DNA from: Escherichia coli | GTDB taxonomy: Bacteria; Pseudomonadota; Gammaproteobacteria; Enterobacterales; Enterobacteriaceae | Length of the DNA: 63,428 nucleotides | Strand: one strand, 5' to 3' | NCBI RefSeq assembly: GCF_024223415.1 | Contig: NZ_CP100504.1 | Shown here: piece after piece, positions 20,740 through 62,582 of the stretch | Layout: the number at the start of each line of letters is the position of its first letter | How positions within the stretch are numbered: the stretch's first letter is position 1 | Made by a program: the position numbers and the translations under genes | Notes under the pieces: model-generated | Database searches by the model: none | The model's input: the letters and a program-made list of their open reading frames with translations, nothing else | Told to the model about the DNA's origin: nothing

Positions 20740-20810
20740 CGTAGTAAGTTAATTTTCATTAACCACCACGAGGCATCCCTATGTCTAGTCCACATCAGGA
20801 TAGCCTCTTA
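20740..20810 (-). ncRNA. sok: Sok antisense RNA (approximate)
   Basis: Placed by position antisense to the mok/hok leader, from the known organisation of hok/sok loci; exact ends not determinable by eye. Confidence 0.35.
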
Positions 20811-20993
20811 CCGCGCTTTGCGCAAGGAGAAGAAGGCCATGAAACTACCACGAAGTTCCCTTGTCTGGTGTGTGTTGATCGTGTGTCTCACACTGTTGAT
20901 ATTCACTTATCTGACACGAAAATCGCTGTGCGAGATTCGTTACAGAGACGGACACAGGGAGGTGGCGGCTTTCATGGCTTACGAATCCGGTAA
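20781..20993 (+). CDS. mok: Mok (modulation of killing) overlapping reading frame
   Basis: 70-aa ORF overlapping hok in another frame, as in R1 hok/sok. Confidence 0.55.
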
Positions 20994-24809: not shown

Positions 24810-24910
24810 CAATTAACCACATAAAGGTTATATTAATTATGTGGTTAATGCCACGTTAAAAATTTAGTTTGAATCGCCAATGCAGGGAGTAGCACCTCCC
24901 TGCATTGACT
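24810..24910 (-). ncRNA. finP: FinP antisense RNA (approximate)
   Basis: Two inverted repeats in the traJ leader (ttaaccacat...atgtggttaa; tgcagggag-tagcac-ctccctgca) just upstream of the traJ RBS. Confidence 0.5.
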
Positions 24911-24938
24911 GTCCATAGAATCCTTTGAGGAGGTTCCT

Positions 24939-25590
24939 ATGTGTGCAATGGATCGTAGAGAAAGAGCACTCATTCGTCAATTACATTTCCCTAACGACTT
25001 AAGAGAGAACATTTCATTATTGAAATATCCCGTATGTATACGTTTTGAAGACGGTTCTTTTATAGGAACAAATCACAGCTTCGAGCGATTTATTAAATTA
25101 TCATATTGTTCATGTGATGAATGGTTTGAGCATTTGACTTTAGAATCCAAGTTACAACTATCAAGATCTGAGATGGATTCATATTTTTCAACTTATGGTG
25201 TAAGTTATATTAATAATGTTTCAATTAGTGCTATGTCATGGAGCATGGTTATCGAAACACTCAATACAAATGAAGGTTGTTTTTTCGTCTGGCGATTTAT
25301 TGAGTCAAATGACAAAAATATTTCAACATCTTTGATTTCTAAATCTAATGATGGGTTGATATTTTTTCTGGGGAATATATAGATATTGAACCCTATCTTG
25401 TAGGGTTTAGCCATTATTATTCTGCAGCAGTGACAAAAATTAGTATATCTAAATCCAAGAAGAAAACGATGAATTTTTTCAAAATGAATGGGTTTAGTTC
25501 CAGAGATCACTGGTTGGATGAAATGCTCAGGTCTGAAAAAATACTATTTCTATATGATAGAGTAAAAGGAATATTAAAAAACAAGTGTTA
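24939..25590 (+). pseudogene. traJ: transfer activator TraJ, apparent frameshift
   Basis: 147-aa ORF stops at 25382, but the +2 frame is open from 25350 to 25590; the frame change coincides with a T6 run (25363-25368); combined length ~215 aa. Confidence 0.55.
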
Positions 25591-45696: not shown

Positions 45697-48515
45697 ATGA
45701 AGTTTATGTGATTGCCGGTGGTGAGTGGTTGCGGAATAACCTGAATGCCATTGCCGCCTTTATGGGAACCAGAACGTGGGATTCCATTGAAAAAATTGCG
45801 CTCACATTGTCTGTTCTCGCGGTGGCCGTAATGTGGGTACAGCGGCACAACGTGATGGATTTGCTGGGCTGGGTGGCCGTGTTTGTGCTTATCAGCCTGC
45901 TGGTTAATGTCCGTACATCGGTGCAGATTATTGATAACAGTGACCTGGTCAAAGTTCACCGGGTGGATAATGTGCCGGTCGGACTGGCGATGCCACTTTC
46001 ACTGACGACCCGTATCGGGCATGCAATGGTGGCCAGTTACGAGATGATCTTCACGCAACCGGACAGTGTCACCTACAGCAAAACGGGGATGCTGTTTGGC
46101 GCAGAACTGGTATCAAAAAGCACCGACTTTTTGTCCCGTAATCCGGAAATCGCCAATCTTTTCCAGGATTATGTGCAGAACTGCGTGATGGGGGATATTT
46201 ACCTGAACCACAAATATACGCTGGAGGAGCTGATGGCCTCCGCTGATCCCTACACGCTGATTTTTTCCCGCCCCAGCCCGCTGCGGGGCGTTTATGACAG
46301 CAATAATAATTTCGTAACCTGTAAGGACGCTTCGGTTTCGCTGAAAGACAAGCTGAATCTGGACACACAGAGTGGCGGAAAAACCTGGCATTATTATGCC
46401 CAGCAGCTATTTGGCGGACGCCCTGATCCTAACCTGCTGTTCAGTACGCTGATTGGCGACAGTTACAGTTACTTCTATGGCTCAAGTAAATCAGCCAGCC
46501 AGATCATCCGCCAGAATGTCACCATCAATGCGCTGAAGGAGGGGATCACCAGTTATGCCGCACGTAATGGTGATTCGGCCAGCCTGGTGAATCTGGCCAC
46601 CACGTCATCGATGGAGAAACAACGTCTGGCACATGTATCAATCGGTCATGTGGCGATGCGGACACTGCCCATGACGCAGACCATCCTGACGGGGATCGCC
46701 ATCGGTATTTTCCCGCTCCTGGTACTGGCGGCTGTATTCAACAAACTGACGCTGTCCGTCCTGAAAGGCTATGTGTTTGCCCTGATGTGGTTGCAGTCAT
46801 GGCCAATGTTGTACGCCATTCTGAACAGCGCCATGACATTTTATGCAAAGCAGAATGGTGCACCGGTGGTGCTCTCGGAAATTTCACAGATACAGCTGAA
46901 ATACTCCGATCTGGCTTCCACTGCCGGGTATCTTTCCATGATGATCCCGCCATTATCCTGGATGATGGTCAGGGGGCTCGGGGCAGGATTTTCCAGTGTG
47001 TACAGCCATTTCGCTTCCTCTGCTATCAGCCCGACCGCCAGTGCAGCAGGCAGTGTGGTTGACGGTAATTACTCCTACGGCAACATGCAGACGGAGAACG
47101 TGAACGGCTTCAGCTGGAGCACCAACAGCACCACGTCGTTTGGTCAGATGATGTACCAGACCGGCAGTGGCGCAACTGCCACACAGACCCGTGACGGTAA
47201 TATGGTGATGGATGCAAGCGGAGCGATGTCCCGGTTACCGGTCGGCATCAATGCAACGCGTCAGATTGCGGCGGCACAACAGGAAATGGCCCGGGAAGCA
47301 TCGAACAGAGCAGAAAGTGCCCTGCATGGGTTCAGCAGCAGTATTGCCAGTGCCTGGAACACGCTCAGTCAGTTTGGTTCTAACCGGGGGAGCAGTGATT
47401 CTGTCACCGGTGGTGCTGACAGTACGATGAGTGCACAGGACTCCATGATGGCCAGCCGTATGCGCAGTGCAGTGGAAAGCTATGCGAAGGCGCATAATAT
47501 CAGTAATGAGCAGGCGACTCAGGAACTGGCATCCAGAAGTACGAGAGCTTCTGCCGGGATGTATGGAGATGCTCATGCTGAATGGGGGGTTAAACCTGGA
47601 ATTCTTGGTGTTGGTGGCGGCTTAGGTGTTAAAGGTGGTGGTCGCGCTGGTATTGATTGGGAAGATAATGATGCGCATACGGCAAGTAGTAATACTCAGT
47701 CGAGCCATAATGCTCGTCATGATATCGATGCCAGAGCTACACAAGACTTTAAAGAGGCCAGCGATTACTTTACCAGTCGCAAGGTCAGTGAGTCCGGCAG
47801 CCATACTGACAATAATGCTGATTCCCGTGTGGATCAGTTGTCTGCAGCCCTGAATTCAGCGAAGCAGAGTTACGACCAGTTCACGACGAATATGACCCGC
47901 AGCCATGAATATGCTGAAATGGCATCCCGTACTGAAAGCATGAGTGGGCAGATGAGTGAAGACCTGTCGCAACAGTTTGCACAGTATGTGATGAAACACG
48001 CGCCGCAGGATGCCGAAGCTATTCTGACAAACACCAGTTCACCGGAGATTGCAGAACGCCGTCGGGCTATGGCGTGGTCTTTTGTTCAGGAACAGGTGCA
48101 GCCTGGTGTTGATAATGCCTGGCGTGAATCCCGTGGGGACATCGGTAAAGGAATGGAGAGCGTACCTTCGGGTGGTGGCAGCCAGGATATTATTGCTGAT
48201 CATCAGGGGCATCAGGCCATTATTGAGCAAAGAACGCAGGACAGTAATATCCGTAATGATGTAAAACATCAGGTTGATAATATGGTCACAGAATACCGAG
48301 GCAATATCGGAGATACTCAGAGCAGCATACGTGGCGAAGAAAATATTGTAGGAAGACAGTATTCTGAACTACAAAATCACCATAAAACAGAGGCATTATC
48401 TCAGAATAATAAATATAATGAAGAAAAATCGGGTCAGGAAAGAATGCCCGGGGCTGACAGTCCACAGGAACTGATGAAAAGAGCAAAGGAGTATCAGGAT
48501 AAGCACAAGCAATAA
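45693..48515 (+). CDS. traG: TraG (pilus assembly, mating-pair stabilisation, entry-exclusion target)
   Basis: 940 aa with N-terminal polytopic domain and large periplasmic C-terminal domain. Confidence 0.95.
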   Translation: MNEVYVIAGGEWLRNNLNAIAAFMGTRTWDSIEKIALTLSVLAVAVMWVQRHNVMDLLGWVAVFVLISLLVNVRTSVQIIDNSDLVKVHRVDNVPVGLAMPLSLTTRIGHAMVASYEMIFTQPDSVTYSKTGMLFGAELVSKSTDFLSRNPEIANLFQDYVQNCVMGDIYLNHKYTLEELMASADPYTLIFSRPSPLRGVYDSNNNFVTCKDASVSLKDKLNLDTQSGGKTWHYYAQQLFGGRPDPNLLFSTLIGDSYSYFYGSSKSASQIIRQNVTINALKEGITSYAARNGDSASLVNLATTSSMEKQRLAHVSIGHVAMRTLPMTQTILTGIAIGIFPLLVLAAVFNKLTLSVLKGYVFALMWLQSWPMLYAILNSAMTFYAKQNGAPVVLSEISQIQLKYSDLASTAGYLSMMIPPLSWMMVRGLGAGFSSVYSHFASSAISPTASAAGSVVDGNYSYGNMQTENVNGFSWSTNSTTSFGQMMYQTGSGATATQTRDGNMVMDASGAMSRLPVGINATRQIAAAQQEMAREASNRAESALHGFSSSIASAWNTLSQFGSNRGSSDSVTGGADSTMSAQDSMMASRMRSAVESYAKAHNISNEQATQELASRSTRASAGMYGDAHAEWGVKPGILGVGGGLGVKGGGRAGIDWEDNDAHTASSNTQSSHNARHDIDARATQDFKEASDYFTSRKVSESGSHTDNNADSRVDQLSAALNSAKQSYDQFTTNMTRSHEYAEMASRTESMSGQMSEDLSQQFAQYVMKHAPQDAEAILTNTSSPEIAERRRAMAWSFVQEQVQPGVDNAWRESRGDIGKGMESVPSGGGSQDIIADHQGHQAIIEQRTQDSNIRNDVKHQVDNMVTEYRGNIGDTQSSIRGEENIVGRQYSELQNHHKTEALSQNNKYNEEKSGQERMPGADSPQELMKRAKEYQDKHKQ

Positions 48516-49015: not shown

Positions 49016-49063
49016 ATCTTAATTTGTATATTATGACGTTTTATTCAATATGAAGGAACATTG

Positions 49064-49795
49064 ATGAAAATGAAAAAATTGATGATGGTTGCACTGGTCA
49101 GTTCCACTCTGGCCCTTTCAGGGTGTGGTGCGATGAGCACAGCAATCAAGAAGCGTAACCTTGAGGTGAAGACTCAGATGAGTGAGACCATCTGGCTTGA
49201 ACCCGCCAGCGAACGCACGGTATTTCTGCAGATCAAAAACACGTCTGATAAAGACATGAGTGGGCTGCAGGGTAAAATTGCTGATGCTGTGAAAGCAAAA
49301 GGATATCAGGTGGTGACTTCTCCGGATAAAGCCTACTACTGGATTCAGGCGAATGTGCTGAAGGCCGATAAGATGGATCTGCGGGAGTCTCAGGGATGGC
49401 TGAACCGTGGTTATGAAGGCGCAGCTGTTGGTGCAGCGTTAGGTGCCGGTATTACCGGCTATAACTCAAATTCTGCCGGTGCCACACTCGGTGTAGGCCT
49501 TGCTGCTGGTCTGGTGGGTATGGCTGCAGATGCGATGGTGGAAGATGTGAACTATACCATGATCACGGATGTGCAGATTGCAGAGCGTACTAAGGCAACG
49601 GTGACAACGGATAATGTTGCCGCCCTGCGTCAGGGCACATCAGGTGCGAAAATTCAGACCAGTACTGAAACGGGTAACCAGCATAAATACCAGACCCGTG
49701 TGGTCTCAAATGCGAACAAGGTTAACCTGAAATTTGAAGAGGCGAAGCCTGTTCTCGAAGACCAGCTGGCCAAATCAATCGCAAATATTCTCTGA
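49064..49795 (+). CDS. traT: surface exclusion lipoprotein TraT
   Basis: 243 aa from [26 protein letters not shown] (lipobox); matches TraT. Confidence 0.95.
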
Positions 49796-49805
49796 ACCTC
49801 GTCAG

Positions 49806-49830
49806 GAGGCTGATCTGACCGGCCTCCTTG
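49806..49830. terminator. hairpin downstream of traT
   Basis: aggaggc-(loop)-gcctcct inverted repeat 10 nt after the traT stop. Confidence 0.4.
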
Positions 49831-49910
49831 CTGACGCCTCGCGTTGCTCGTTGTCCAACCCCGGGATGTAACAAAATAAATTTTGTCATCTCCCGGCGTT
49901 TCCGAAATAA
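49831..49910. repeat. ~80-bp conserved intergenic motif, copy A
   Basis: ctgacgcctcgcgttgctcgttgtccaaccccgg ... tcccggcgtttccgaaataaa; arms shared with 61554-61640 and partly with 62207-62250. Confidence 0.8.
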
Positions 49911-49997
49911 ATATGAAAACACTGAGCGGTTGTGCAAATTCTTTGTGCGACCGTGAAGTGTTGCCGGCGAAGCCGGGATCTTCCGGAGAAAGTCATT

Positions 49998-50735
49998 ATG
50001 ACATCAGACAATATCGCTGAATATGTTGGTGAGAATAATCAATTTACTGAGAAGCCTGTAACTGAATACCCCCCGGTGATACAGGATAATACAGTGACGA
50101 CTAAAGATTATCTGTACAGCAATAATATTGATACTGACCTTTTAGTGGTTATCGGAGGGCTTATTGTTATATTGTTTCTCATGATGCTTATCATGTACTT
50201 TATTAATTCTCTCAGGCATAAGGAATTAACTGAAATACTGACAAAAATATCTTTTCCTGAAAAATCCGGGAGCAATTCGCTTAAACCGGAAGCGGTCAGC
50301 TGTAATTTGTTGTCCCTGTGTGTGCTGGCACCGGTATTCTGTACACCCAGAAAGCTGGCAGAAGTCTCCAGGGAGATCATCGTGGCGAGTGCGCAGGAAA
50401 TTGCATGGACGCCGGGGAGCAGTCGTATTGATGGCCACCAGGCGGAGAATATCACCTGGGCGATTTCATCGCAGTCTCCTGCCGATAAGTATGATCTCAT
50501 CAATAAAACGTCCCGTGTTTCTCCTGACAGTGGCCGTTTTTATGAACCGGACACAGTTCTGGATCACCGTGAACGGGTACGCCTTTTTATTCAGATCCAG
50601 TTTCCGCATGGGAGTGACTGGTCTGAAGTATTGCGCCTGACTGACATTGTTACAGAGAAGGTCTCTTCCGGCAGGACTGCAGGCGGGTATCACCACCGGC
50701 ATACAGGGTACACCTGGTCTGTTTCTGTGAATTAA
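49998..50735 (+). CDS. hypothetical single-pass membrane protein (cargo between traT and traD)
   Basis: ~245 aa from MTSDNIAEY; one TM helix ([22 protein letters not shown]); AT-rich; preceded by motif copy A. Confidence 0.55.
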
Positions 50736-50785
50736 CCCCACATCATCCTTTTCTGCCCTGTTCCAGATTTTCCCGGAGTTTCATC

Positions 50786-52777
50786 ATGAGTTTTAACGCA
50801 AAGGATATGACCCAGGGCGGTCAGATTGCGTCCATGCGTATCCGCATGTTCAGCCAGATCGCCAATATCATGCTTTACTGCCTGTTTATTTTTTTCTGGA
50901 TACTCGTTGGTCTGATTTTATGGGTAAAAATAAGCTGGCAGACGTTTGTGAACGGCTGTATTTACTGGTGGTGTACCACGCTGGAAGGCATGCGGGATTT
51001 AATCAAGTCCCAGCCAGTATATGAGATTCAGTATTACGGCAAAACCTTCCGGATGAACTCTGCCCAGGTACTGCATGATAAATATATGATCTGGTGCGGT
51101 GAGCAGCTATGGTCCGCATTCGTTCTGGCGTCTGTCGTGGCCCTGGTTATTTGCCTGATCACCTTCTTTGTTGTCTCCTGGATTCTGGGGCGTCAGGGTA
51201 AACAACAGAGCGAAAATGAAGTCACAGGTGGTCGTCAGCTGACAGACAATCCGAAAGACGTTGCCCGGATGCTGAAAAAAGACGGCAAGGACTCCGATAT
51301 CCGGATTGGCGACCTGCCGATTATCCGGGATTCCGAAATCCAGAACTTCTGTCTGCACGGCACGGTCGGGGCCGGTAAGTCGGAGGTTATCCGTCGTCTG
51401 GCCAACTACGCCCGTCAGCGCGGTGATATGGTGGTGATTTATGACCGTTCAGGGGAATTTGTTAAAAGTTACTATGATCCCTCCATCGATAAAATCCTGA
51501 ATCCGCTGGATGCCCGCTGTGCCGCATGGGATTTGTGGAAGGAGTGTCTGACACAGCCGGATTTTGATAATACCGCAAATACTCTGATCCCTATGGGTAC
51601 AAAAGAGGACCCGTTCTGGCAGGGTTCAGGACGTACCATTTTTGCGGAAGCGGCGTACCTGATGCGTAATGACCCCAACCGCAGCTACAGCAAACTGGTG
51701 GACACACTGCTTTCCATCAAAATCGAAAAACTGCGTACCTTCCTGCGTAATTCTCCGGCGGCCAACCTGGTGGAAGAGAAAATTGAGAAAACGGCGATTT
51801 CCATCCGTGCTGTGCTGACCAACTACGTGAAAGCCATCCGTTACCTGCAGGGGATTGAGCATAACGGTGAGCCCTTCACCATACGTGACTGGATGCGTGG
51901 TGTCCGGGAAGATCAGAAAAACGGCTGGCTGTTTATTTCGTCGAACGCCGACACCCATGCCTCCCTGAAGCCGGTGATCTCCATGTGGCTGTCCATTGCC
52001 ATTCGTGGTCTGCTGGCAATGGGAGAAAACCGTAACCGTCGTGTGTGGTTTTTCTGTGATGAGTTACCCACGTTACACAAACTGCCGGACCTGGTGGAGA
52101 TCCTGCCGGAAGCCCGTAAGTTCGGTGGCTGTTATGTGTTTGGTATCCAGTCCTATGCCCAGCTGGAAGATATCTACGGTGAGAAAGCGGCGGCCACGCT
52201 GTTTGACGTCATGAACACCCGTGCTTTTTTCCGTTCCCCGAGCCATAAGATTGCAGAGTTCGCTGCCGGTGAGATTGGTGAGAAAGAGCACCTGAAAGCC
52301 AGCGAGCAGTATTCCTACGGTGCTGACCCGGTACGTGACGGGGTATCGACCGGTAAGGATATGGAGCGTCAGACGCTGGTCAGTTATTCCGACATTCAGT
52401 CTCTGCCGGATCTGACCTGCTATGTCACTCTGCCCGGACCGTATCCGGCAGTAAAACTCTCCCTGAAATATCAGGCACGACCGAAGGTCGCTCCGGAGTT
52501 TATTCCGCGTGACATCAACCCGGAAATGGAGAACCGTCTGAGTGCCGTACTTGCCGCAAGGGAAGCAGAAGGTCGTCAGATGGCCAGCCTCTTTGAACCG
52601 GAGGTTGCCTCCGGAGAAGATGTGACTCAGGCTGAACAGCCACAACAGCCACAACAGCCACAACAGCCACAACAGCCACAACAGCCACAACAGCCGGTGT
52701 CTCCTGCCATCAACGATAAGAAGTCAGATTCAGGTGTGAATGTTCCGGCAGGGGGATCGAGCAGGAGCTGGAAATGA
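50786..52777 (+). CDS. traD: type IV coupling protein TraD
   Basis: 663 aa with N-terminal TM segments, Walker A GTVGAGKS and a C-terminal QPQ repeat tail. Confidence 0.95.
52637..52690. repeat. 9-bp tandem repeat (cagccacaa)n inside traD
   Basis: About six tandem units encoding the (QPQ)n tract in the TraD C-terminal tail. Confidence 0.9.
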
Positions 52778-52974
52778 AACCGGAAGAAGAGATGGAACAG
52801 CAACTGCCACCCGGGATCAGTGAATCCGGTGAAGTGGTGGATATGGCCGCTTATGAGGCATGGCAACAGGAAAATCATCCGGACATCCAGCAGCAGATGC
52901 AGCGTCGTGAAGAGGTGAACATTAATGTGCACCGGGAGCGTGGGGAGGATGTTGAGCCGGGAGATGATTTCTGA
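52774..52974 (+). CDS. small acidic hypothetical protein between traD and traI
   Basis: 66-aa ORF overlapping the traD stop and ending exactly at the traI start. Confidence 0.45.
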
Positions 52975-55900
52975 TGATGAGTATCGCGCAGGTCAGATCG
53001 GCCGGAAGTGCCGGTAACTATTATACCGACAAGGATAATTACTATGTACTGGGCAGCATGGGAGAACGCTGGGCCGGCAGGGGGGCTGAACAGCTGGGAC
53101 TGCAGGGCAGTGTCGATAAGGATGTTTTTACCCGTCTTCTGGAGGGAAGGCTGCCGGACGGAGCGGATCTAAGCCGCATGCAGGATGGCAGTAATAAGCA
53201 TCGTCCCGGCTACGACCTGACCTTCTCCGCCCCCAAAAGTGTCTCCATGATGGCCATGCTCGGGGGGGACAAACGTCTTATTGAAGCACATAACCAGGCC
53301 GTGGACTTTGCTGTTCGTCAGGTGGAGGCGCTGGCCTCCACACGGGTGATGACGGACGGACAGTCAGAAACGGTACTGACCGGTAATCTGGTGATGGCAC
53401 TGTTTAACCACGACACCAGTCGCGATCAGGAACCACAGTTACATACGCATGCGGTGGTGGCTAATGTCACGCAGCATAACGGTGAGTGGAAGACACTGAG
53501 CAGTGACAAAGTGGGGAAAACGGGGTTCATTGAGAATGTGTACGCTAATCAGATTGCCTTTGGCAGGCTCTACCGGGAAAAACTGAAAGAGCAGGTTGAG
53601 GCGCTGGGCTATGAAACCGAAGTGGTGGGTAAGCACGGTATGTGGGAGATGCCGGGCGTACCGGTGGAGGCCTTTTCCGGACGCTCACAGACTATCCGGG
53701 AGGCCGTCGGGGAAGATGCCTCGCTGAAATCCCGGGATGTGGCGGCACTGGATACGCGAAAATCCAAACAGCACGTCGATCCTGAAGTCAGAATGGCTGA
53801 ATGGATGCAGACGCTGAAGGAAACCGGGTTCGACATCCGGGCATATCGTGACGCGGTGGATCAGCGTGCGGAGACCCGCACGCAGGCGCCCGGGGCTGTT
53901 TCACAGGAGGGGCCGGATGTGCAGCAGGCGGTGACACAGGCGATTGCCGGATTAAGTGAACGAAAAATGCAGTTTACGTACACGGACGTGCTGGCCAGAA
54001 CGGTCGGTATACTGCCGCCGGAAAATGGTGTGATTGAACGGGCACGCGCCGGTATCGATGAGGCCATCAGTCGTGAGCAGCTTATCCCCCTCGACCGTGA
54101 GAAGGGGCTGTTCACATCAGGAATTCATGTGCTCGATGAGCTGTCCGTCCGGGCACTCAGTCGTGACATCATGAAACAGAACCGGGTGACCGTACATCTG
54201 GAGAAAAGTGTCCCCCGGACGGCTGGTTACAGCGATGCGGTCAGTGTTCTGGCACAGGACCGTCCGTCGCTGGCCATTGTGTCCGGGCAGGGCGGTGCAG
54301 CCGGGCAGCGTGAGCGGGTGGCTGAACTGGTCATGATGGCCCGGGAGCAGGGGCGGGAGGTGCAGATTATCGCCGCTGACCGTCGCTCGCAGATGAACCT
54401 GAAGCAGGATGAACGGCTGTCCGGTGAGCTGATAACCGGACGTCGTCAGCTGCAGGAGGGCATGGCCTTCACGCCGGGCAGTACTGTTATCGTCGACCAG
54501 GGCGAAAAACTCTCCCTGAAAGAGACGTTAACCCTGCTGGACGGTGCCGCACGTCATAACGTACAGGTCCTGATAACCGACAGCGGGCAGCGAACCGGTA
54601 CAGGCAGTGCACTGATGGCCATGAAGGATGCCGGGGTGAACACGTATCGCTGGCAGGGCGGAGAACAGCGACCGGCCACCATCATCAGTGAACCGGACCG
54701 GAATGTCCGCTATGACCGGCTGGCCGGAGATTTTGCGGCCAGCGTGAAAGCCGGAGAAGAGAGCGTGGCACAGGTCAGCGGGGTACGGGAACAGGCCATA
54801 CTGACACAGGCCATTCGCAGTGAGCTGAAAACACAGGGCGTGCTCGGACACCCGGAGGTGACCATGACGGCACTGTCACCGGTCTGGCTGGACAGCCGGA
54901 GCCGTTATCTGCGGGATATGTACCGACCGGGGATGGTGATGGAGCAGTGGAACCCGGAGACACGCAGTCATGACCGCTATGTTATCGACCGGGTGACGGC
55001 GCAGAGTCACAGCCTGACCCTGCGGGATGCGCAGGGCGAAACGCAGGTGGTGCGTATTTCCTCCCTGGACAGCAGCTGGTCGCTGTTCCGGCCGGAAAAA
55101 ATGCCGGTGGCAGACGGCGAGCGACTGAGGGTGACAGGGAAAATTCCCGGACTCCGCGTCTCCGGCGGTGACCGCCTGCAGGTGGCATCCGTCAGTGAAG
55201 ATGCGATGACGGTTGTTGTGCCGGGGCGGGCTGAACCGGCCACCCTGCCTGTGGCTGATTCACCGTTCACGGCACTGAAGCTGGAGAACGGCTGGGTGGA
55301 AACGCCCGGGCATTCCGTCAGCGACAGTGCGAAGGTTTTTGCCTCCGTCACACAGATGGCAATGGACAACGCCACCCTGAACGGTCTGGCCCGCAGTGGT
55401 CGTGATGTCCGGCTGTATTCTTCACTGGATGAAACCCGTACTGCGGAAAAACTTGCCCGCCATCCCTCCTTTACGGTGGTTTCTGAGCAGATAAAGGCGC
55501 GTGCCGGTGAGACATTGCTGGAAACCGCTATCAGTCTGCAGAAAGCCGGGCTTCACACGCCGGCACAGCAGGCTATTCATCTGGCCCTTCCTGTGCTGGA
55601 AAGTAAAAACCTGGCCTTCAGCATGGTGGACCTGCTGACAGAGGCGAAGTCGTTTGCTGCAGAAGGAACCAGTTTTACTGAACTGGGAGGGGAAATCAAT
55701 GCGCAGATAAAACGCGGTGATTTACTGTATGTGGATGTGGCAAAAGGCTATGGCACAGGCCTGCTGGTTTCCCGTGCGTCGTATGAGGCAGAAAAGAGCA
55801 TTCTTCGCCATATTCTCGAAGGTAAGGAGGCGGTCACGCCGCTGATGGAGAGAGTACCTGGCGAACTCATGGAGAAACTGACATCAGGACAGCGTGCCGC

Positions 55901-58244
55901 CACCCGCATGATACTGGAAACGTCCGACCGTTTCACGGTGGTGCAGGGCTATGCCGGTGTGGGTAAGACCACACAGTTCCGGGCGGTGATGTCAGCCGTG
56001 AACATGCTGCCGGAGAGTGAGCGTCCCCGTGTCGTTGGGCTGGGTCCCACGCACCGCGCGGTCGGGGAGATGCGCAGCGCCGGCGTGGATGCACAGACAC
56101 TGGCGTCCTTTCTGCATGACACGCAGCTGCAGCAGCGCAGCGGAGAAACGCCGGATTTCAGCAACACGCTGTTCCTGCTCGATGAGAGCTCAATGGTGGG
56201 CAATACCGACATGGCACGGGCATACGCCCTGATTGCGGCCGGTGGCGGTCGTGCTGTGGCCAGCGGTGACACGGACCAGCTGCAGGCCATCGCGCCCGGT
56301 CAGCCTTTCCGTCTCCAGCAGACGCGCAGTGCTGCCGATGTGGTCATCATGAAGGAGATTGTGCGTCAGACGCCGGAACTGCGGGAGGCGGTATACAGCC
56401 TGATTAACCGGGATGTGGAAAGGGCACTGTCCGGGCTTGAGAGTGTGAAACCGTCTCAGGTTCCCCGTCAGGAGGGCGCATGGGCACCGGAGCACTCCGT
56501 GACGGAGTTCAGTCACAGCCAGGAAGCGAAACTGGCAGAAGCGCAGCAGAAGGCGATGCTGAAAGGCGAGGCTTTCCCGGATATCCCCATGACACTGTAT
56601 GAAGCCATTGTCCGCGACTATACCGGCAGGACACCGGAAGCACGGGAGCAGACGCTGATTGTCACACACCTGAATGAGGACCGGCGCGTACTGAACAGCA
56701 TGATTCATGATGCACGGGAAAAGGCCGGTGAGCTGGGCAAAGAGCAGGTCATGGTGCCTGTCCTGAACACAGCGAATATACGTGACGGAGAACTGCGTCG
56801 TCTCTCCACCTGGGAGAATAACCCGGATGCCCTTGCCCTGGTGGATAGTGTGTATCACCGGATTGCCGGTATCAGCAAGGATGACGGGCTGATAACCCTG
56901 GAGGATGCGGAAGGTAACACGCGGCTGATTTCGCCCCGGGAGGCGGTGGCTGAAGGCGTCACACTGTACACCCCGGACACCATCCGGGTGGGAACCGGTG
57001 ACCGGATGCGCTTCACGAAGAGTGACCGGGAGCGCGGTTATGTGGCCAACAGCGTCTGGACGGTGACAGCGGTTTCCGGTGACAGTGTCACGCTGTCGGA
57101 CGGACAGCAGACCCGGGTGATTCGCCCCGGTCAGGAGCGGGCAGAGCAACATATTGACCTGGCTTATGCCATCACCGCCCACGGTGCGCAGGGGGCAAGT
57201 GAAACCTTTGCCATCGCGCTTGAAGGCACGGAAGGTAACCGGAAACTGATGGCAGGCTTTGAGTCAGCTTATGTAGCCCTGTCGCGTATGAAGCAGCATG
57301 TGCAGGTGTACACCGATAACCGTCAGGGCTGGACGGATGCCATCAACAATGCCGTACAGAAAGGAACTGCCCACGATGTGTTTGAACCGAAACCGGACCG
57401 GGAGGTCATGAATGCAGAGCGGCTGTTCAGTACGGCGCGGGAGCTGCGGGACGTGGCGGCAGGCCGTGCCGTTCTTCGTCAGGCGGGACTTGCCGGGGGA
57501 GACAGTCCTGCACGGTTTATTGCTCCGGGACGTAAATATCCGCAACCGTATGTGGCACTGCCGGCTTTTGACCGTAACGGCAGGTCCGCCGGTATCTGGC
57601 TGAACCCGCTGACCACGGATGACGGAAACGGGCTGCGGGGATTCAGCGGTGAAGGCCGGGTGAAAGGCAGCGGGGATGCACAGTTTGTGGCCCTGCAGGG
57701 CAGCCGTAACGGAGAGAGCCTGCTGGCTGATAATATGCAGGATGGTGTCCGGATTGCCCGTGATAATCCTGACAGCGGTGTGGTGGTGAGAATCGCCGGT
57801 GAAGGCCGTCCGTGGAATCCCGGTGCCATCACCGGTGGTCGCGTGTGGGGGGATATCCCGGACAACAGCGTCCAGCCGGGGGCCGGAAATGGTGAACCGG
57901 TTACAGCTGAAGTGCTGGCACAGCGGCAGGCTGAAGAGGCCATCCGCCGTGAAACGGAACGTCGCGCAGATGAAATTGTCCGTAAAATGGCAGAGAACAA
58001 ACCTGACCTGCCGGATGGCAGAACAGAGCAGGCTGTCAGGGAGATTGCCGGGCAGGAGCGTGACCGGGCTGCCATAACTGAACGGGAAGCCGCGCTGCCG
58101 GAGAGTGTGCTGCGTGAATCACAACGGGAGCGGGAAGCGGTCCGGGAGGTTGCCCGGGAAAATCTGCTGCAGGAGCGTCTGCAGCAGATGGAGCGGGATA
58201 TGGTCCGTGACCTGCAGAAAGAGAAAACCCTGGGCGGAGACTGA
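52974..58244 (+). CDS. traI: relaxase/helicase TraI
   Basis: 1756 aa starting [27 protein letters not shown] (relaxase domain) followed by helicase motifs. Confidence 0.95.
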   Translation: MMSIAQVRSAGSAGNYYTDKDNYYVLGSMGERWAGRGAEQLGLQGSVDKDVFTRLLEGRLPDGADLSRMQDGSNKHRPGYDLTFSAPKSVSMMAMLGGDKRLIEAHNQAVDFAVRQVEALASTRVMTDGQSETVLTGNLVMALFNHDTSRDQEPQLHTHAVVANVTQHNGEWKTLSSDKVGKTGFIENVYANQIAFGRLYREKLKEQVEALGYETEVVGKHGMWEMPGVPVEAFSGRSQTIREAVGEDASLKSRDVAALDTRKSKQHVDPEVRMAEWMQTLKETGFDIRAYRDAVDQRAETRTQAPGAVSQEGPDVQQAVTQAIAGLSERKMQFTYTDVLARTVGILPPENGVIERARAGIDEAISREQLIPLDREKGLFTSGIHVLDELSVRALSRDIMKQNRVTVHLEKSVPRTAGYSDAVSVLAQDRPSLAIVSGQGGAAGQRERVAELVMMAREQGREVQIIAADRRSQMNLKQDERLSGELITGRRQLQEGMAFTPGSTVIVDQGEKLSLKETLTLLDGAARHNVQVLITDSGQRTGTGSALMAMKDAGVNTYRWQGGEQRPATIISEPDRNVRYDRLAGDFAASVKAGEESVAQVSGVREQAILTQAIRSELKTQGVLGHPEVTMTALSPVWLDSRSRYLRDMYRPGMVMEQWNPETRSHDRYVIDRVTAQSHSLTLRDAQGETQVVRISSLDSSWSLFRPEKMPVADGERLRVTGKIPGLRVSGGDRLQVASVSEDAMTVVVPGRAEPATLPVADSPFTALKLENGWVETPGHSVSDSAKVFASVTQMAMDNATLNGLARSGRDVRLYSSLDETRTAEKLARHPSFTVVSEQIKARAGETLLETAISLQKAGLHTPAQQAIHLALPVLESKNLAFSMVDLLTEAKSFAAEGTSFTELGGEINAQIKRGDLLYVDVAKGYGTGLLVSRASYEAEKSILRHILEGKEAVTPLMERVPGELMEKLTSGQRAATRMILETSDRFTVVQGYAGVGKTTQFRAVMSAVNMLPESERPRVVGLGPTHRAVGEMRSAGVDAQTLASFLHDTQLQQRSGETPDFSNTLFLLDESSMVGNTDMARAYALIAAGGGRAVASGDTDQLQAIAPGQPFRLQQTRSAADVVIMKEIVRQTPELREAVYSLINRDVERALSGLESVKPSQVPRQEGAWAPEHSVTEFSHSQEAKLAEAQQKAMLKGEAFPDIPMTLYEAIVRDYTGRTPEAREQTLIVTHLNEDRRVLNSMIHDAREKAGELGKEQVMVPVLNTANIRDGELRRLSTWENNPDALALVDSVYHRIAGISKDDGLITLEDAEGNTRLISPREAVAEGVTLYTPDTIRVGTGDRMRFTKSDRERGYVANSVWTVTAVSGDSVTLSDGQQTRVIRPGQERAEQHIDLAYAITAHGAQGASETFAIALEGTEGNRKLMAGFESAYVALSRMKQHVQVYTDNRQGWTDAINNAVQKGTAHDVFEPKPDREVMNAERLFSTARELRDVAAGRAVLRQAGLAGGDSPARFIAPGRKYPQPYVALPAFDRNGRSAGIWLNPLTTDDGNGLRGFSGEGRVKGSGDAQFVALQGSRNGESLLADNMQDGVRIARDNPDSGVVVRIAGEGRPWNPGAITGGRVWGDIPDNSVQPGAGNGEPVTAEVLAQRQAEEAIRRETERRADEIVRKMAENKPDLPDGRTEQAVREIAGQERDRAAITEREAALPESVLRESQREREAVREVARENLLQERLQQMERDMVRDLQKEKTLGGD

Positions 58245-58263
58245 TACAGGAAGACAAACACTG

Positions 58264-59010
58264 ATGACAACGGATAACACGAATACGACACGTAACGATT
58301 CACTGGCTGCACGGACCGATACCTGGTTGCAGTCGTTTCTGGTCTGGTCACCCGGACAGCGGGATATCATCAAAACGGTGGCACTGGTGCTGATGGTACT
58401 GGACCACATCAATCTGATATTCCAGCTGAAGCAGGAATGGATGTTTCTGGCCGGGCGAGGAGCCTTTCCGCTGTTTGCCCTGGTGTGGGGGCTGAATCTG
58501 TCCCGTCATGCGCATATCCGGCAACCGGCCATTAACCGGCTGTGGGGATGGGGAATTATTGCCCAGTTCGCATATTATCTGGCCGGCTTTCCCTGGTATG
58601 AGGGGAATATCCTGTTTGCCTTTGCAGTGGCGGCACAGGTGCTGACGTGGTGTGAAACGCGCAGTGGGTGGCGTACGGCAGCGGCCATTCTTCTGATGGC
58701 CCTGTGGGGGCCCTTGTCCGGCACCAGTTACGGCATTGCCGGGCTGCTGATGCTGGCAGTCAGCCACCGGCTGTACCGGGCGGAAGACAGAGCGGAACGT
58801 CTGGCGCTGGTCGCCTGCCTGCTGGCTGTTATTCCGGCGCTTAACCTTGCCACCAGTGATGCAGCGGCGGTGGCCGGTCTTGTGATGACGGTGCTGACCG
58901 TTGGTCTGGTGTCGTGTGCAGGAAAATCATTACCCCGTTTCTGGCCCGGGGATTTTTTCCCGGTATTCTACGCCTGTCATCTGGCTGTGCTGGGCGTTCT
59001 GGCGCCGTGA
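58264..59010 (+). CDS. traX: pilin N-acetylase TraX
   Basis: 248-aa polytopic membrane protein from MTTDNTNTTRN; last tra gene before finO. Confidence 0.85.
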   Translation: MTTDNTNTTRNDSLAARTDTWLQSFLVWSPGQRDIIKTVALVLMVLDHINLIFQLKQEWMFLAGRGAFPLFALVWGLNLSRHAHIRQPAINRLWGWGIIAQFAYYLAGFPWYEGNILFAFAVAAQVLTWCETRSGWRTAAAILLMALWGPLSGTSYGIAGLLMLAVSHRLYRAEDRAERLALVACLLAVIPALNLATSDAAAVAGLVMTVLTVGLVSCAGKSLPRFWPGDFFPVFYACHLAVLGVLAP

Positions 59011-59064
59011 CGGGTGTGGTATCTTTGACCGTAACAGGATGATTCGTCAGAGGCAGAACACAGC

Positions 59065-59625
59065 ATGACAGAGCAGAAGCGACCGGTACTGACACTGAAG
59101 CGGAAAACGGAAGGGGAGACGCCTGTCCGCAGCCGGAAAACCATCATCAATGTCACCACGCCACCAAAGTGGAAGGTGAAAAAGCAGAAGCTGGCCGAGA
59201 AAGCAGCCCGGGAAGCAGAGCTGGCGGCAAAAAAAGCGCAGGCCAGACAGGCACTGTCCATTTATCTGAACCTGCCCACGCTGGATGAGGCCGTGAATAC
59301 CCTGAAACCCTGGTGGCCGGGATTGTTTGACGGTGACACGCCCCGGCTTCTGGCCTGCGGTATCCGGGACGTGTTACTGGAAGACGTGGCGCAGCGGAAT
59401 ATCCCGCTCTCGCATAAAAAACTGCGCAGGGCGCTGAAGGCCATCACCCGTTCAGAAAGCTATCTGTGTGCCATGAAAGCCGGTGCCTGCCGGTATGACA
59501 CGGAAGGGTATGTGACGGAGCATATTTCTCAGGAGGAGGAAGCGTATGCGGCAGCGCGTCTGGATAAAATCCGCCGCCAGAACCGGATAAAGGCAGAACT
59601 TCAGGCCGTGCTTGATGAGAAATAA
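59065..59625 (+). CDS. finO: fertility inhibition protein FinO (intact)
   Basis: 186 aa starting [14 protein letters not shown]...; matches FinO; uninterrupted. Confidence 0.9.
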
Positions 59626-59755
59626 AAAAGCCTCCGTCAGAGAGAGGAGGCAGGGAAATAAGGCTTAAAGGAAATAACTTCCGTACCCAAAAGGAAATCG
59701 GTCCACTGAATTATTTAACACCATAATGCTGACGGGTTAAAGAGGAGTGATAAAG

Positions 59756-59968
59756 ATGAATGGATTCAGAAACAGTTCACGGAACGGTCAGGTCTGGCGC
59801 TGGCAGCGTGCCGGAAGCCGGGCCGTTATTCTGGAGGTCAGTGGACGCTGGATGGAAGCGGCAGAAGCATGGCGACGGGCTGCCGGTGTTGCACCCCGGA
59901 CAGACTGGCAGCAGTTTGCCCGAAAAAGGGCTGAACAATGCCACCGACGCTGCCGGGGAAGGGTGTAA
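59756..59968 (+). CDS. small Arg/Trp-rich hypothetical protein
   Basis: 70-aa ORF with strong RBS agaggag 8 nt upstream. Confidence 0.45.
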   Translation: MNGFRNSSRNGQVWRWQRAGSRAVILEVSGRWMEAAEAWRRAAGVAPRTDWQQFARKRAEQCHRRCRGRV

Positions 59969-60212
59969 CGAAAAAGCAGCCTTCATTACTCCAGGGATTC
60001 AGAAGGCTGAATAATGCATGAGATTTGCTTTTTTTAATATCCGGTCGGGCAGTATGACCGGACAGTTCTGAGTAGCACAGAGTTTTTTCCGTATTAAGTC
60101 GTGATTTTATATTTTGTGATTAATTTCGCAAAATAAGGTGTTATTCAGTGTGTGCTGCGATATTCAGGATTACCTGAAATACAGGTGCCATTTATCTGAT
60201 ATGGAGAATAAT

Positions 60213-60674
60213 ATGAGGAAATATATTCCACTGGTATTATTTATCTTTTCATGGCCGGTATTGTGTGCAGATATTCATGGACGGGTTGTTCGTGTACTGG
60301 ACGGTGATACCATCGAGGTCATGGACTCACGGAAGGCAGTGCGGATCAGGCTGGTAAATATTGATGCACCGGAAAAGAAACAGGATTATGGCCGGTGGTC
60401 AACGGACATGATGAAATCACTGGTTGCAGGAAAAACGGTTACCGTCACATATTTTCAGCGAGATCGTTATGGTCGTATTCTCGGGCAGGTTTATGCACCA
60501 GACGGAATGAATGTTAATCAGTTTATGGTCCGGGCCGGGGCTGCCTGGGTATATGAGCAGTACAACACAGATCCCGTGCTGCCTGTCCTTCAGAACGAAG
60601 CCAGACAACAAAAACGTGGGCTCTGGTCAGATGCTGATCCGGTTCCCCCCTGGATATGGAGACACCGTAAATAA
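60213..60674 (+). CDS. nuc: secreted thermonuclease (staphylococcal nuclease homologue)
   Basis: 153 aa from MRKYIPLVLFIFSWPVLCA (signal peptide); SNase-like motifs (VLDGDTIEV, RLVNIDAPE); RBS ggaga. Confidence 0.75.
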   Translation: MRKYIPLVLFIFSWPVLCADIHGRVVRVLDGDTIEVMDSRKAVRIRLVNIDAPEKKQDYGRWSTDMMKSLVAGKTVTVTYFQRDRYGRILGQVYAPDGMNVNQFMVRAGAAWVYEQYNTDPVLPVLQNEARQQKRGLWSDADPVPPWIWRHRK

Positions 60675-60719
60675 AGCGATGGCAATCTTATCATTCATCT
60701 GTTCTCAGCGGGAATAAAA

Positions 60720-60929
60720 ATGGCGAAAACAAAACAGGAATGGCTGTATCAGTTACGGCGATGTTCATCAGTCAATACGCTGGAAAAAATTATTCATAAA
60801 AACAGAGACAGTTTATTAAACAGTGAACGTGAATCATTTAATTCAGCAGCAGACCACCGGTTAGCGGAATTAATCACCGGAAAGTTATATGACAGGATAC
60901 CAAAAGAGATATGGAAATATGTAAGGTAA
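60720..60929 (+). CDS. small hypothetical protein
   Basis: 69-aa ORF 37 bp upstream of the DUF2726-like gene. Confidence 0.4.
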   Translation: MAKTKQEWLYQLRRCSSVNTLEKIIHKNRDSLLNSERESFNSAADHRLAELITGKLYDRIPKEIWKYVR

Positions 60930-60966
60930 TAATTCAACATAATTAATTTCCAGGAACAGATAAATA

Positions 60967-61557
60967 ATGAAGTTGATTATTTTTATTCTCATTGTTCTGA
61001 TTATTGCAGCGTTACTTATCCGGATTATCCTCAGAAGTGTAAATCAGCATTCTCCTTTGCTGATGCAGTTACATGCGGCAGGTATACGGACCGGTGATGC
61101 AGAGCGAATACTGTCCGGCGGTGAATACTGGCAACGTCAGAAGACGCTGCTGACAGAAAGGGAAGTCAGTTTTATGAAAGGACTGTTCAGAATTGTGGAT
61201 ATGAAGCGGTGGTATCTGTGTCCGCAGGTACGGGTCGCGGATATCGTCCAGCTGAACGGGAATATCCGGCCACGATCACGCCAGTGGTGGCAGTTATTCA
61301 GGATGGTGTCTCAGTGGCATGTTGATGTGGTTATCGTTGAGCGGCGTTCGTTCAGTATTGTTGCAGCAGTAGAGCTGGATGATGCCAGCCATTTACGACC
61401 GGAACGCAGACGCCGGGATATTCTTCTGGAAGAGGTTCTGAGGCAGGCTGGTATTCCGTTGCTCAGAAGCCACGATGCCAGAAAACTGCTGCAGATGACC
61501 GGAGAATGGCTGAATACAACAGGGGCTGATCAGCAGTCCCCGGAACATCGTAGCTGA
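60967..61557 (+). CDS. membrane-anchored DUF2726-like protein (predicted nuclease-related fold)
   Basis: 196 aa with an N-terminal TM helix (MKLIIFILIVLIIAALLIRIIL) and acidic and basic residues spaced like a PD-(D/E)xK-type motif (HVDVVIVERR...VELDD); family call from memory. Confidence 0.55.
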   Translation: MKLIIFILIVLIIAALLIRIILRSVNQHSPLLMQLHAAGIRTGDAERILSGGEYWQRQKTLLTEREVSFMKGLFRIVDMKRWYLCPQVRVADIVQLNGNIRPRSRQWWQLFRMVSQWHVDVVIVERRSFSIVAAVELDDASHLRPERRRRDILLEEVLRQAGIPLLRSHDARKLLQMTGEWLNTTGADQQSPEHRS

Positions 61558-61640
61558 CGCCTTCGCGTTGCTCAGTTGTCCAACCCCGGAAACGGGAAAA
61601 AGCAAGTTTTCCCCGCTCCCGGCGTTTCCGTAATAAAAAA
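61554..61640. repeat. ~80-bp conserved intergenic motif, copy B
   Basis: ctgacgccttcgcgttgctcagttgtccaaccccgg ... ctcccggcgtttccgtaataaaaaacgggaaatgg; begins at the DUF2726-like stop codon. Confidence 0.8.
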
Positions 61641-61711
61641 CGGGAAATGGTGGTCACAGAATAAATTCCGGAACTACCTGTACCCAAACTTTATATAATA
61701 AAGGTGAATAT

Positions 61712-62161
61712 ATGGAATATGATGATGTATCAGAATTGATGATTAAGCGTGAACACAATATTCTTATTGTTGGGAATTCTGCCTCCCACATTGATAAGTT
61801 TTTTAAGGAGTATTCTATACCAAGTTCTAAATATTATGATTTCACTCAGATTAACAGTGATTCAGATGTAGAGAGAAATGAGAATGCTGTCTCTTTTATC
61901 AGGGATGCAATGAATAGTGAAGAGCTCACAATCATTTTTAATTGCGTTGGGTGGCCTGATTTAGGTGGTGGATCAGCAGTATCACTGTTTGCAATGATGG
62001 CCAGAAAATTTGGTAAACAACTTATTGTCGCTGTAAGTGAAAAGTATGCCATCAAATTAAAAGACAACTTTGATATTATTGGGATGTTGTCATATGGTAA
62101 AGAAAATTTTATTGCCATGAGTCATACGAAAAGCGAGTTAACTGGAGGGAAACGTCGGTAA
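61712..62161 (+). CDS. hypothetical protein with a Gly-rich (GGGS) loop
   Basis: 149-aa ORF with RBS aaaggtga; pattern of hydrophobic strands (ILIVGN, TIIFNCVGWPDLGGGSAVS, QLIVAV) suggests a Rossmann-like fold; AT-rich. Confidence 0.5.
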   Translation: MEYDDVSELMIKREHNILIVGNSASHIDKFFKEYSIPSSKYYDFTQINSDSDVERNENAVSFIRDAMNSEELTIIFNCVGWPDLGGGSAVSLFAMMARKFGKQLIVAVSEKYAIKLKDNFDIIGMLSYGKENFIAMSHTKSELTGGKRR

Positions 62162-62206
62162 CGGATTAAAAATAGATGTAAATAAAAAGCATACTTATTG
62201 GCTGGA

Positions 62207-62250
62207 GTGACGCCTTCGTGCTTCGGTAGTAAAAAACGGGAAATGAAGGT
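62207..62250. repeat. partial copy C of the conserved intergenic motif
   Basis: tgacgccttcgtgcttcggtagtaaaaaacgggaaatgaagg shares both ends with copy B but lacks the central part; lies upstream of srnB. Confidence 0.6.
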
Positions 62251-62375
62251 AATAGTCAGCAACAGGGAATGTGGTATTATCGCGGCGGGTGTCTGAGCCT
62301 TTCTGGTTCAGGCAAGACGCAGGTACCAGAAATGCGAAGACCCCACTTGTTAATCCATTAACTCGTGAGGTCTGC

Positions 62376-62582
62376 ATGAAGTACTTGAACACTACTGATT
62401 GTAGCCTCTTCCTTGCAGAGAGGTCAAAGTTTATGACGAAATATGCCCTTATCGGGTTGCTCGCCGTGTGCGCCACGGTGTTGTGTTTTTCACTGATATT
62501 CAGGGAACGGTTATGTGAACTGAATATTCACAGGGGAAATACAGTGGTGCAGGTAACTCTGGCCTACGAAGCACGGAAGTAA
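62376..62582 (+). CDS. srnB: SrnB (Hok/Gef-family membrane toxin locus)
   Basis: 68-aa ORF MKYLNTTDCSLFLAERSKFMTKYALIGLLAVCATVLCFSLIFRERLCELNIHRGNTVVQVTLAYEARK; Hok-like core starts at MTKYAL; a GC-rich fold-back region follows. Confidence 0.8.
   Translation: MKYLNTTDCSLFLAERSKFMTKYALIGLLAVCATVLCFSLIFRERLCELNIHRGNTVVQVTLAYEARK

Follow-up and report, generated by a model that had tools for sequence, protein, structure and literature searches.

What is the short bipartite motif that lies beside accessory genes near the end of an Escherichia coli IncF plasmid sequence? The sequence is a stretch of 63,428 nucleotides (NCBI RefSeq assembly GCF_024223415.1, contig NZ_CP100504.1; here called the window, with positions counted from its first letter), the end of which is the distal part of an IncF transfer region. 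An annotation made from the letters alone (the sequence-only reading) had seen the motif three times and offered three identities for it: a promoter or operator module, a structured RNA, or a recombination site used to insert cargo. We find that the motif is a conserved unit of about 85–90 nucleotides (nt) in fixed orientation, that it contains a hairpin under selection on one particular strand, and that it resembles the complementary-strand origins of microviruses. These properties suggest that, on the strand that IncF plasmids transfer during conjugation (the T-strand), it probably serves as a phiX174-type single-strand initiation signal, at which a primosome would be assembled in a PriA-dependent manner.

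Two full copies of a conserved unit

The two full copies of the motif occupy 49,831–49,911 (copy 1) and 61,554–61,640 (copy 2), and a covariance model scan finds no further full copy in the window. Their arms are shared, as had been described: the 63 kb contain exactly two occurrences of the 22-nt right arm CTCCCGGCGTTTCCGWAATAAA and likewise two of the 15-mer GTTGTCCAACCCCGG, where shuffles predict none of either, and the left arms differ solely by two 1-nt insertions or deletions. The central palindromes differ as noted, being unlike in sequence and forming a hairpin in both copies. The third copy, proposed at 62,207–62,250, survives only as a remnant (62,207–62,245, no strand assigned), in which the first 11 nt of the left arm, TGACGCCTTCG, are joined to a 3′ flank, TTCgGTAgTAAAAAACGGGAAATG. 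It is without the linker and the hairpin P2 described below and is undetected by the covariance model; the 15-mer AAAAAACGGGAAATG of this 3′ flank is present exactly at 61,635 and 62,231.

On the plus strand, the unit consists in order of CTGACGCC, a hairpin (P1), the linker GTTGTCCAAC, a second hairpin (P2) and GGCGTTTC. The first segment holds a TGA that serves as the stop codon for at least five unrelated upstream gene families. We collected 138 instances, some through a gapped pattern scan of metagenomes and others from retrieved plasmids. At most of these loci the linker was fixed by the search pattern, so that its constancy there is preselected; it is also exact in all six IncF instances retrieved by BLAST, which were not preselected, whereas two diverged copies depart from it by one or two changes and in one further variant (L248) it has decayed. 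Scanning genome contigs with the bare 15-mer gave 120 loci, nearly all of them chance and seven of them real. P1 forms in different registers in copies of the E. coli type and of the Klebsiella type (an example is GACGCC-N7-GGCGTC). P2 is 16–17 base pairs (bp) long and occurs as 30 distinct stem sequences. Plasmid F has another P2 stem sequence in the same frame as copy 1, indicating compensatory change.

Read on the T-strand (the minus strand, as established below), copy 1 spans 49,816–49,908 (model match 73.7 bits, E = 3e-19) between traT and the pair formed by a 245-residue open reading frame (ORF) and traD. Its parts on that strand are the P1 region at 49,831–49,846 (CTGACGCCTCGCGTTG, a small 4-bp hairpin), whose T-strand 3′ end GGCGTCAG is invariant, the linker at 49,850–49,860 (GTTGTCCAACC; T-strand GGTTGGACAAC) and P2 at 49,861–49,896, with 16 bp, an internal mismatch and the T-strand loop TTTA. 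Copy 2, also on the minus strand, spans 61,541–61,634 (99.7 bits, E = 8e-27) between a DUF2726 gene and a 149-residue ORF, with the linker at 61,575–61,585 (again GTTGTCCAACC) and P2 at 61,586–61,622, which has 16 continuous T-strand pairs including three G·T. A separate GC-rich hairpin, GGAGGCTGATCTGACCGGCCTCC, occupies 49,805–49,827, immediately 3′ of the traT stop and shortly ahead of copy 1; F keeps this hairpin, which has no counterpart at copy 2.

A hairpin selected on the transferred strand

P2 is selected for pairing, and it is selected on the minus strand. In an alignment of 51 distinct sequences from several enterobacterial genera, which was fitted to the model and leans towards its structure, 97.2% of P2 cells are paired on the minus strand, and 9 of the 16 pairs have changed in both partners. 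The covariation that the sequence-only reading had asked for in the variable central stem is present: the score is 0.367 against 0.179 in shuffles, none of 500 shuffles reaches it, and it lies far above slid controls. The strand is revealed by the cells that are not Watson–Crick pairs, of which 100 are G·T and 6 are A·C on the minus strand, so that the plus strand is only 85.6% paired. This asymmetry is independent of the alignment. Each of the 30 P2 variants has its better fold on the minus strand, usually an unbroken stem of 16–17 bp, although the plus-strand hairpin is still stable (−10 to −27 kcal/mol). Within the window, the DNA fold of copy 1 is −17.3 kcal/mol on the minus strand and −12.9 on the plus strand, and copy 2 gives −45.1 against −34.9 when folded as RNA and −23.0 against −18.4 when folded as DNA. 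The three T-strand G·T pairs of copy 2 each become an A·C mismatch on the plus strand.

The favoured strand is antisense to every flanking gene. Its identity follows from the oriT nick sequence, read directly on the minus strand at 24,036–24,051 as GCGTGGGGTGT/GGTGC (GTGGGGTGT/GGTGC, the slash marking the nick), which is the known nic sequence of F. FinP and traJ_5, at 24,839–24,945, confirm the oriT locus. The position of the nick sequence makes the minus strand the transferred strand. The same orientation is seen at 135 loci, where homologues of TraT, TraD, TraI, FinO, RepA1 and RepA2 are all on the plus strand of the motif, without exception.

Similarity to microvirus complementary-strand origins

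We searched phage genomes with a covariance model, R1, built from IncF copies only and in the T-strand sense. Across the whole phiX174 genome the top match is at 2300–2384 on the viral strand (19.5 bits, E = 2e-4; next match E = 0.16), a score that is modest when taken alone because loci preselected for the exact 15-mer reach up to 21.4 bits. The argument is carried by phage ID18, in which R1 finds the same element between genes F and G on the viral strand with 37.2 bits (E = 1.6e-9), and by the co-linear architecture of the plasmid and phage elements. SECphi17 has a viral-strand match in the same gap (20.7 bits, E = 1e-4). Both of these more distant microviruses outscore phiX174. R1 has no match in phage G4, which has a primase-type complementary-strand origin annotated in that gap, and the two elements therefore look like alternative minus-strand origins at one locus. 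ID18 (L254, 113–197) is classified as Gequatrovirus G4, yet its F–G region has the phiX174-type element and not the primase-type origin of G4 (L256, 3884–4019); the complementary-strand origin seems to be a swappable module in microviruses too.

The T-strand arrangement AACGCCGG–stem–CCGGGGTTGGACAAC … GCGAAGGCGTCAG resembles the phiX174 F–G intergenic sequence, with which it was compared directly. Both DNAs fold into a hairpin that is closed in the same way, by AAC-G-CC…GG-G-GTT, and has an A/T-rich apex; the loop TTTA is common to phiX174 and the traT-type IncF copies. In both, the hairpin is followed by GGTTG(G/A)AC(A/C)A and then by a short GC hairpin with a GAAG/AAG loop. A joint alignment of plasmid and phage elements shows AACG, the A and T runs of the apex, GGTTG, CAA, GCG and AG to be invariant. 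In phiX174, this hairpin (5′ stem 2308–2326) overlaps ori(−) and is the PriA binding site, and a shorter hairpin lies just downstream at 2353–2373, according to a 2026 saturation-mutagenesis preprint (bioRxiv 10.64898/2026.07.25.740675). No U-tract follows the element in ID18 or SECphi17, which argues against a purely terminator role.

A backbone feature at accessory-gene junctions

The motif is a backbone feature of IncF plasmids. A search of other plasmids, as the sequence-only reading had recommended, shows that it is not unique to this one: BLAST against PLSDB finds at least 5000 records with the motif, mostly in two places per record, in Escherichia, Klebsiella, Shigella, Salmonella, Enterobacter, Citrobacter and other hosts. 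It is present in 3406 of 5426 complete E. coli genomes (median 2 per genome), at 6226 plasmid and 55 chromosomal places. In F itself, copy 1 follows traT and contains another central palindrome, and copy 2 is missing because that segment is replaced.

Homology to other plasmids begins and ends exactly at the CTGACGCC and GGCGTTTC edges, and the flanks fall into at least 15 upstream and at least 22 downstream classes that occur in many combinations. Upstream partners include TraT, DUF2726, a DsbA-like protein, a 102-residue protein and a paralogue of the 149-residue protein; downstream partners include the 245-residue ORF, TraD, RepA2/CopB, a PLD-family nuclease, Hok and a 337-residue protein. 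Model searches recover extra, more diverged copies, so that the gene for the 337-residue protein (L139) and a 2.4-kb block (L187) are each seen to be bracketed by two copies. The window provides a third bracketed case, the 149-residue gene between copy 2 and the remnant. As had been reported, each copy follows closely on a gene: the traT stop is at 49,795, the TGA of the DUF2726 gene (61,555–61,557, plus strand) is inside the left edge of copy 2, and the 149-residue ORF stops at 62,161 before the remnant.

A small hairpin, P3 (TTTCCG/CGGGAAA), stands on the plus strand at 61,625–61,647, in the downstream flank just 3′ of the conserved unit, and shows covariation (TCTGC/GCAGG) in locus L004. 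Its covariation and G·U pairs favour the plus strand, opposite to P2. P3 belongs to the srnB-side flank and is duplicated (61,625–61,647 and 62,221–62,243), one at each end of the 149-residue gene block; at the right end of that block the remnant junction consists of the 11-nt left edge and this P3-type flank.

Several further loci were observed in the survey. In Klebsiella-type plasmids the PLD-family nuclease gene is the usual downstream partner, and in K. pneumoniae pCAV1453-208 (L247, 4001–4075) the motif is between an S-type pyocin immunity gene and such a nuclease gene, adjoining the IncFII(K) replicon and away from any tra gene. A metagenomic variant (L160, 877–967) has lost the 3′ end of the DUF2726 gene by deletion between two copies of the 9-mer GTTGCTCAG, which in the window is at 61,458–61,466 in the gene and at 61,567–61,575 in the left arm of the motif. 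Paralogues of the 149-residue protein flank the motif in NZ_LR898875 (L006), with 132 residues upstream (14,621–15,004) and 145 residues downstream (15,157–15,594). IncF plasmid sequence with the motif also appears in a Streptomyces morookaense contig (contig146, L016) and in two contigs of the Lachnospiraceae metagenome-assembled genome HGM12199 (L063 and L064), which are probably assembly or binning contaminants.

A proposed priming site on the T-strand

We think it probable that the element is a primosome assembly site. It is on the strand that becomes single-stranded, in fixed orientation, and it combines a conserved hairpin with specific flanking bases that resemble the phiX174 n′ site. 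In the recipient, the T-strand coated with single-stranded DNA-binding protein would fold as 5′-AACGCC, the 17-bp hairpin, GGGGTTGGACAAC and a short GC hairpin-3′. Host PriA would recognise the hairpin together with its conserved single-stranded foot and assemble a primosome of PriB, DnaT, DnaB–DnaC and DnaG, and primers would then be laid for complementary-strand synthesis. The complementary hairpin in mRNA may additionally damp read-through, as the phiX174 hairpin doubles as the terminator T_F.

The same proposal would account for the junctions. The unit is constant under selection while the neighbouring accessory genes vary, which makes it a short homologous island where F-like plasmids that have diverged may cross over. 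Crossover in such a selected island would yield sharp cargo junctions and cargo-bracketing copies. The limits of conservation in the plasmids coincide with the limits of the element in the phages, so that no dedicated recombinase is needed.

Several points weigh against a priming site. On the same strand, the microvirus element doubles as the terminator T_F, so that the likeness could reflect a shared RNA function. Each plasmid has only one to three copies, all in the part that enters last, and no copy is found elsewhere in the window or in about 77 kb of F that were scanned. Some variants carry three or four G·T pairs, which are less tolerated in DNA than G·U pairs are in RNA. The phiX174 match on its own is modest, as described above, and the assignment of ssiB in ColE1, considered below, is tentative.

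Alternative explanations

The strand preference of P2 would also be expected of an antisense RNA transcribed from the minus strand, either a small RNA with an exposed GGUUGGACAAC as its seed or a terminator or insulator that blocks antisense transcription into the tra genes from the replication and cargo side. G·U-rich minus-strand pairing suits RNA at least as well as DNA, the two hairpins and the conserved single-stranded spacer form a FinP-like layout, several flank classes have a U-rich run after P1 on the minus strand, and the antisense RNAs AS-pc02 and AS-traI are also present in the region. We nevertheless consider such an RNA unlikely, because no promoter is conserved: the minus-strand sequence 5′ of P2 is unrelated between contexts save for a loose TTATT, and candidate −10 and −35 boxes differ in every flank class, for which reason an independent small RNA gene was rejected. 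P2 is directly followed on the minus strand by GGUUGGAC and not by a U-tract, and the U-run after P1 is absent from the commonest classes and falls within coding sequence in others. Rfam 15 has no match to either copy at E ≤ 1, whereas FinP, CopA, sok, AS-traI and AS-pc02 are found nearby. A FinO/ProQ target was also rejected, given that the major FinO ligands in RNA immunoprecipitation sequencing in Salmonella are FinP and RepX, plus traJ mRNA (PMC8136791). The homologous microvirus element, moreover, is a mapped DNA origin on the packaged DNA strand. Of the structured RNA that had been suggested, the structure and its covariation are borne out, whereas RNA as its medium is disfavoured by the antisense strand, the lack of an Rfam family, a conserved promoter or a U-tract, and a closest relative that is a single-stranded DNA origin. 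A role in the plus-strand mRNA, as a terminator of traT or the distal operon or as a 3′ stabiliser like the repetitive extragenic palindromic (REP) elements, with the two copies as duplicated terminators, is in our view decidedly unlikely. The element is always at the 3′ end of a gene and co-oriented with it, the plus-strand hairpin is stable over the range given above, and the phiX174 counterpart doubles as T_F; a 1987 paper by Jalajakumari et al. reportedly describes terminator activities in the traS–traT region. However, the stem mismatches run 100:6 to the detriment of the plus-strand hairpin, only UUU follows the stem, and neither copy has a site in a scan for intrinsic terminators. A terminator would leave unexplained why AACG and GGTTGGACAAC are conserved beyond the stem, and ID18 and SECphi17 keep the element without a U-tract.

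The junctions, in turn, could mark a dedicated recombination site for cargo capture, integron-like and possibly acting on folded single-stranded DNA, or relaxase-mediated. The sharp, identical breaks across all of the flank classes and the three cases of cargo bracketed by two copies (the window, L139 and L187) bear out that part of the original suggestion; as in attC, moreover, the stop codons of at least five unrelated genes fall within the motif and structure is kept while sequence varies, and the motif loosely resembles the oriT inverted repeat together with GGGGTGT/GG. We judge a dedicated site very unlikely, because it comes with neither an associated recombinase gene nor a core-site architecture. 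GTCCAAC resembles RYYYAAC, yet no GTTRRRY stands across the hairpin to pair with it, where the sequence is CGTTTC and not GTTGGAC, and no integrase is annotated nearby, on which grounds attC was rejected. A pseudo-nic site for TraI, with its loose likeness (an AAAAC-TTG-TTTTT hairpin and then GGGGT(G)TGG), was rejected too, as the model has no match at oriT and the linker is identical in plasmids whose tra genes, and presumably nic sites, have diverged. The limits of conservation are those of the microvirus element, which selection on the unit explains. A variant that we rate as highly improbable would make the priming element also the physical site of gene capture by IncF plasmids, a cassette system that is coupled to replication and needs no integrase: template switching, or restart that depends on PriA, at the folded T-strand hairpin would join incoming or resident single strands at its foot, and the junctions would be the exact CTGACGCC and GGCGTTTC edges of the flank classes. 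It is exceedingly improbable that the unit has no present function and is a relic, for example one derived from a phage, spread by hitch-hiking and recombination. Decayed copies do exist (copy 3 and the L248 variant with its scrambled linker) and F is without a second copy, but selection is needed to explain compensatory changes in 9 of the 16 stem pairs and 97% pairing in 51 distinct sequences.

The remaining identities were set aside more simply. The promoter or operator module first suggested finds no support, a scan giving no promoter-like site on the motif. A promoter for the downstream gene was rejected for want of a consensus site and of room: the Shine–Dalgarno sequence of the next gene is often within 20–40 nt after the motif, and the flanks that would need to supply a −35 box are unrelated between contexts. 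A chromosomal repeat of the REP or enterobacterial repetitive intergenic consensus type, or a miniature inverted-repeat transposable element, does not agree with the 6226 plasmid against 55 chromosomal places, nor with an imperfect terminal repeat of only 6 bp and no target duplication. A small ORF through the motif was rejected because P2 varies in length from 51 to 55 nt and no frame is kept. Compared by eye with consensus sequences, none of a Tus/Ter site, a DnaA box, an integration host factor site or a Xer site fits.

Significance

Knowledge of primosome assembly sites (ssi) dates back to about 1980, and five ssi signals are known in F. Nomura et al. reportedly mapped ssi signals in F and R100 in 1991, and the present element may already have been cloned then. 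In the searchable literature we found no account of how nearly universal it is among IncF plasmids, of the covariation specific to the T-strand, of the homology with microvirus origins or of its role at accessory-gene junctions, and a full-text literature search for the motif sequence returned nothing. How the incoming single strand of F-type plasmids is converted to duplex is only partly understood, and to our knowledge the Frpo promoters are the only T-strand signals currently discussed. If our proposal is correct, most IncF plasmids carry a second, phage-like signal of the PriA type, which offers a testable handle on this conversion and on how far it depends on the restart proteins of the host. 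In E. coli and Klebsiella, resistance and virulence genes are carried mainly by IncF plasmids, and the element would explain why accessory genes are exchanged at the same two points in the distal tra region. The model R1 is a compact marker for annotating these junctions and the orientation of the T-strand, and the element links a plasmid backbone feature to the microvirus complementary-strand origin.

Neighbouring genes and RNAs

The genes at the end of the window are, in order, traT, the 245-residue ORF, traD, traI, traX, finO, an ANR-type regulator, a thermonuclease gene, hha, the DUF2726 gene, the 149-residue ORF, hok/sok (srnB) and CopA. Those adjoining the motif are all on the plus strand: traT (49,061–49,795) upstream of copy 1, the 245-residue ORF (49,998–50,735) between copy 1 and traD, the DUF2726 gene (60,967–61,557) upstream of copy 2, and the 149-residue ORF (61,712–62,161) between copy 2 and the remnant. 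The 245-residue ORF is absent from F, and neither its product nor the 149-residue protein matches an NCBIfam or PADLOC family.

In the window traD (50,786–52,974) is split into ORFs of 663 and 66 residues, one base being missing at about 52,751 relative to two close relatives. The frameshift alters the C-terminal 70 or so residues, which are the TraM-binding end, and reflects either a real pseudogene or a sequencing error. The CAGCCACAA (Q-P-Q) repeats of traD (52,619–52,704) also vary, their number differing by 9 and 63 nt from those of the two relatives.

Rfam matches to the pHK01 antisense RNAs are present on the minus strand, namely AS-pc02 (59,865–60,048), AS-traI (55,823–55,899), AS-traG (46,412–46,497) and AS-pc01 (13,267–13,369), indicating that minus-strand transcription occurs elsewhere in the transfer region. 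Rfam also places hok/sok loci at 20,665–20,841 and 62,287–62,443.

Comparison with known systems

The attC sites of integrons follow cargo genes, often hold a stop codon, conserve structure more than sequence and favour one strand, all of which is true of the IncF element. Unlike attC, the IncF element has no integrase, no paired R″/R′ core sites and no extrahelical-base pattern. The single-strand origins of the ssoA type in rolling-circle plasmids, which come with the RSB recombination site, are intergenic hairpins specific in strand and orientation, with few conserved bases, and are exchangeable cassettes and crossover points between plasmids; by analogy, they may be likened to the IncF element as oriented hairpin modules. 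They differ from it in host range and in being recognised by RNA polymerase, and are not known to share sequence similarity with it.

Frpo, represented by ssiD and ssiE, is the T-strand-specific stem-loop already described in the same plasmid family. ssiD and ssiE are leading-region promoters that work only as single-stranded DNA, and a part in priming the complementary strand has been proposed for them (PMC9849209, PMC11541004). The long Frpo stem-loop re-creates −35 and −10 boxes for RNA polymerase and is located in the region that enters first, whereas the IncF element, at only about 90 nt, lacks promoter hexamers and lies in the region that enters last. No promoter-like site is found at the motif, and its 17-bp stem is too short to hold both boxes.

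The ssiA and ssiB sites of ColE1 and pBR322 are plasmid-borne sites of the phiX174 type, as is proposed for IncF. The best ColE1 match of R1 is weak (12.7 bits, E = 0.25) and lies on the minus strand at 1520–1609, adjoining rop. The second pBR322 primosome site, ssiB, maps beside rop, and the match is tentatively assigned to it. The match shares CCGGGAGC…GACAAGC…GGCGCGTCAGC with the IncF T-strand CCGGGGTTGGACAAC…GGCGTCAGC. In the literature, ssiB is the site further from the origin and is displaced in a pUC derivative, which is consistent with the ColE1 match and no proof of it; the two sites act in theta replication, downstream of the origin, and not on a strand transferred by conjugation (PMC3167613).

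The phiX174 origin differs from the IncF element in several respects. The IncF stem is longer (16–17 bp against 12 bp) and is GC-richer in distal-type copies; it is antisense to the local mRNAs, whereas the phiX174 viral strand is mRNA-sense and its hairpin is also the terminator T_F; and the IncF element is present in one to three copies per replicon, at cargo junctions. The two nevertheless share the features on which our proposal depends, in that both are read on the strand that exists as single-stranded DNA, and in both the changes in the stem are compensatory and the flanking bases are fixed.

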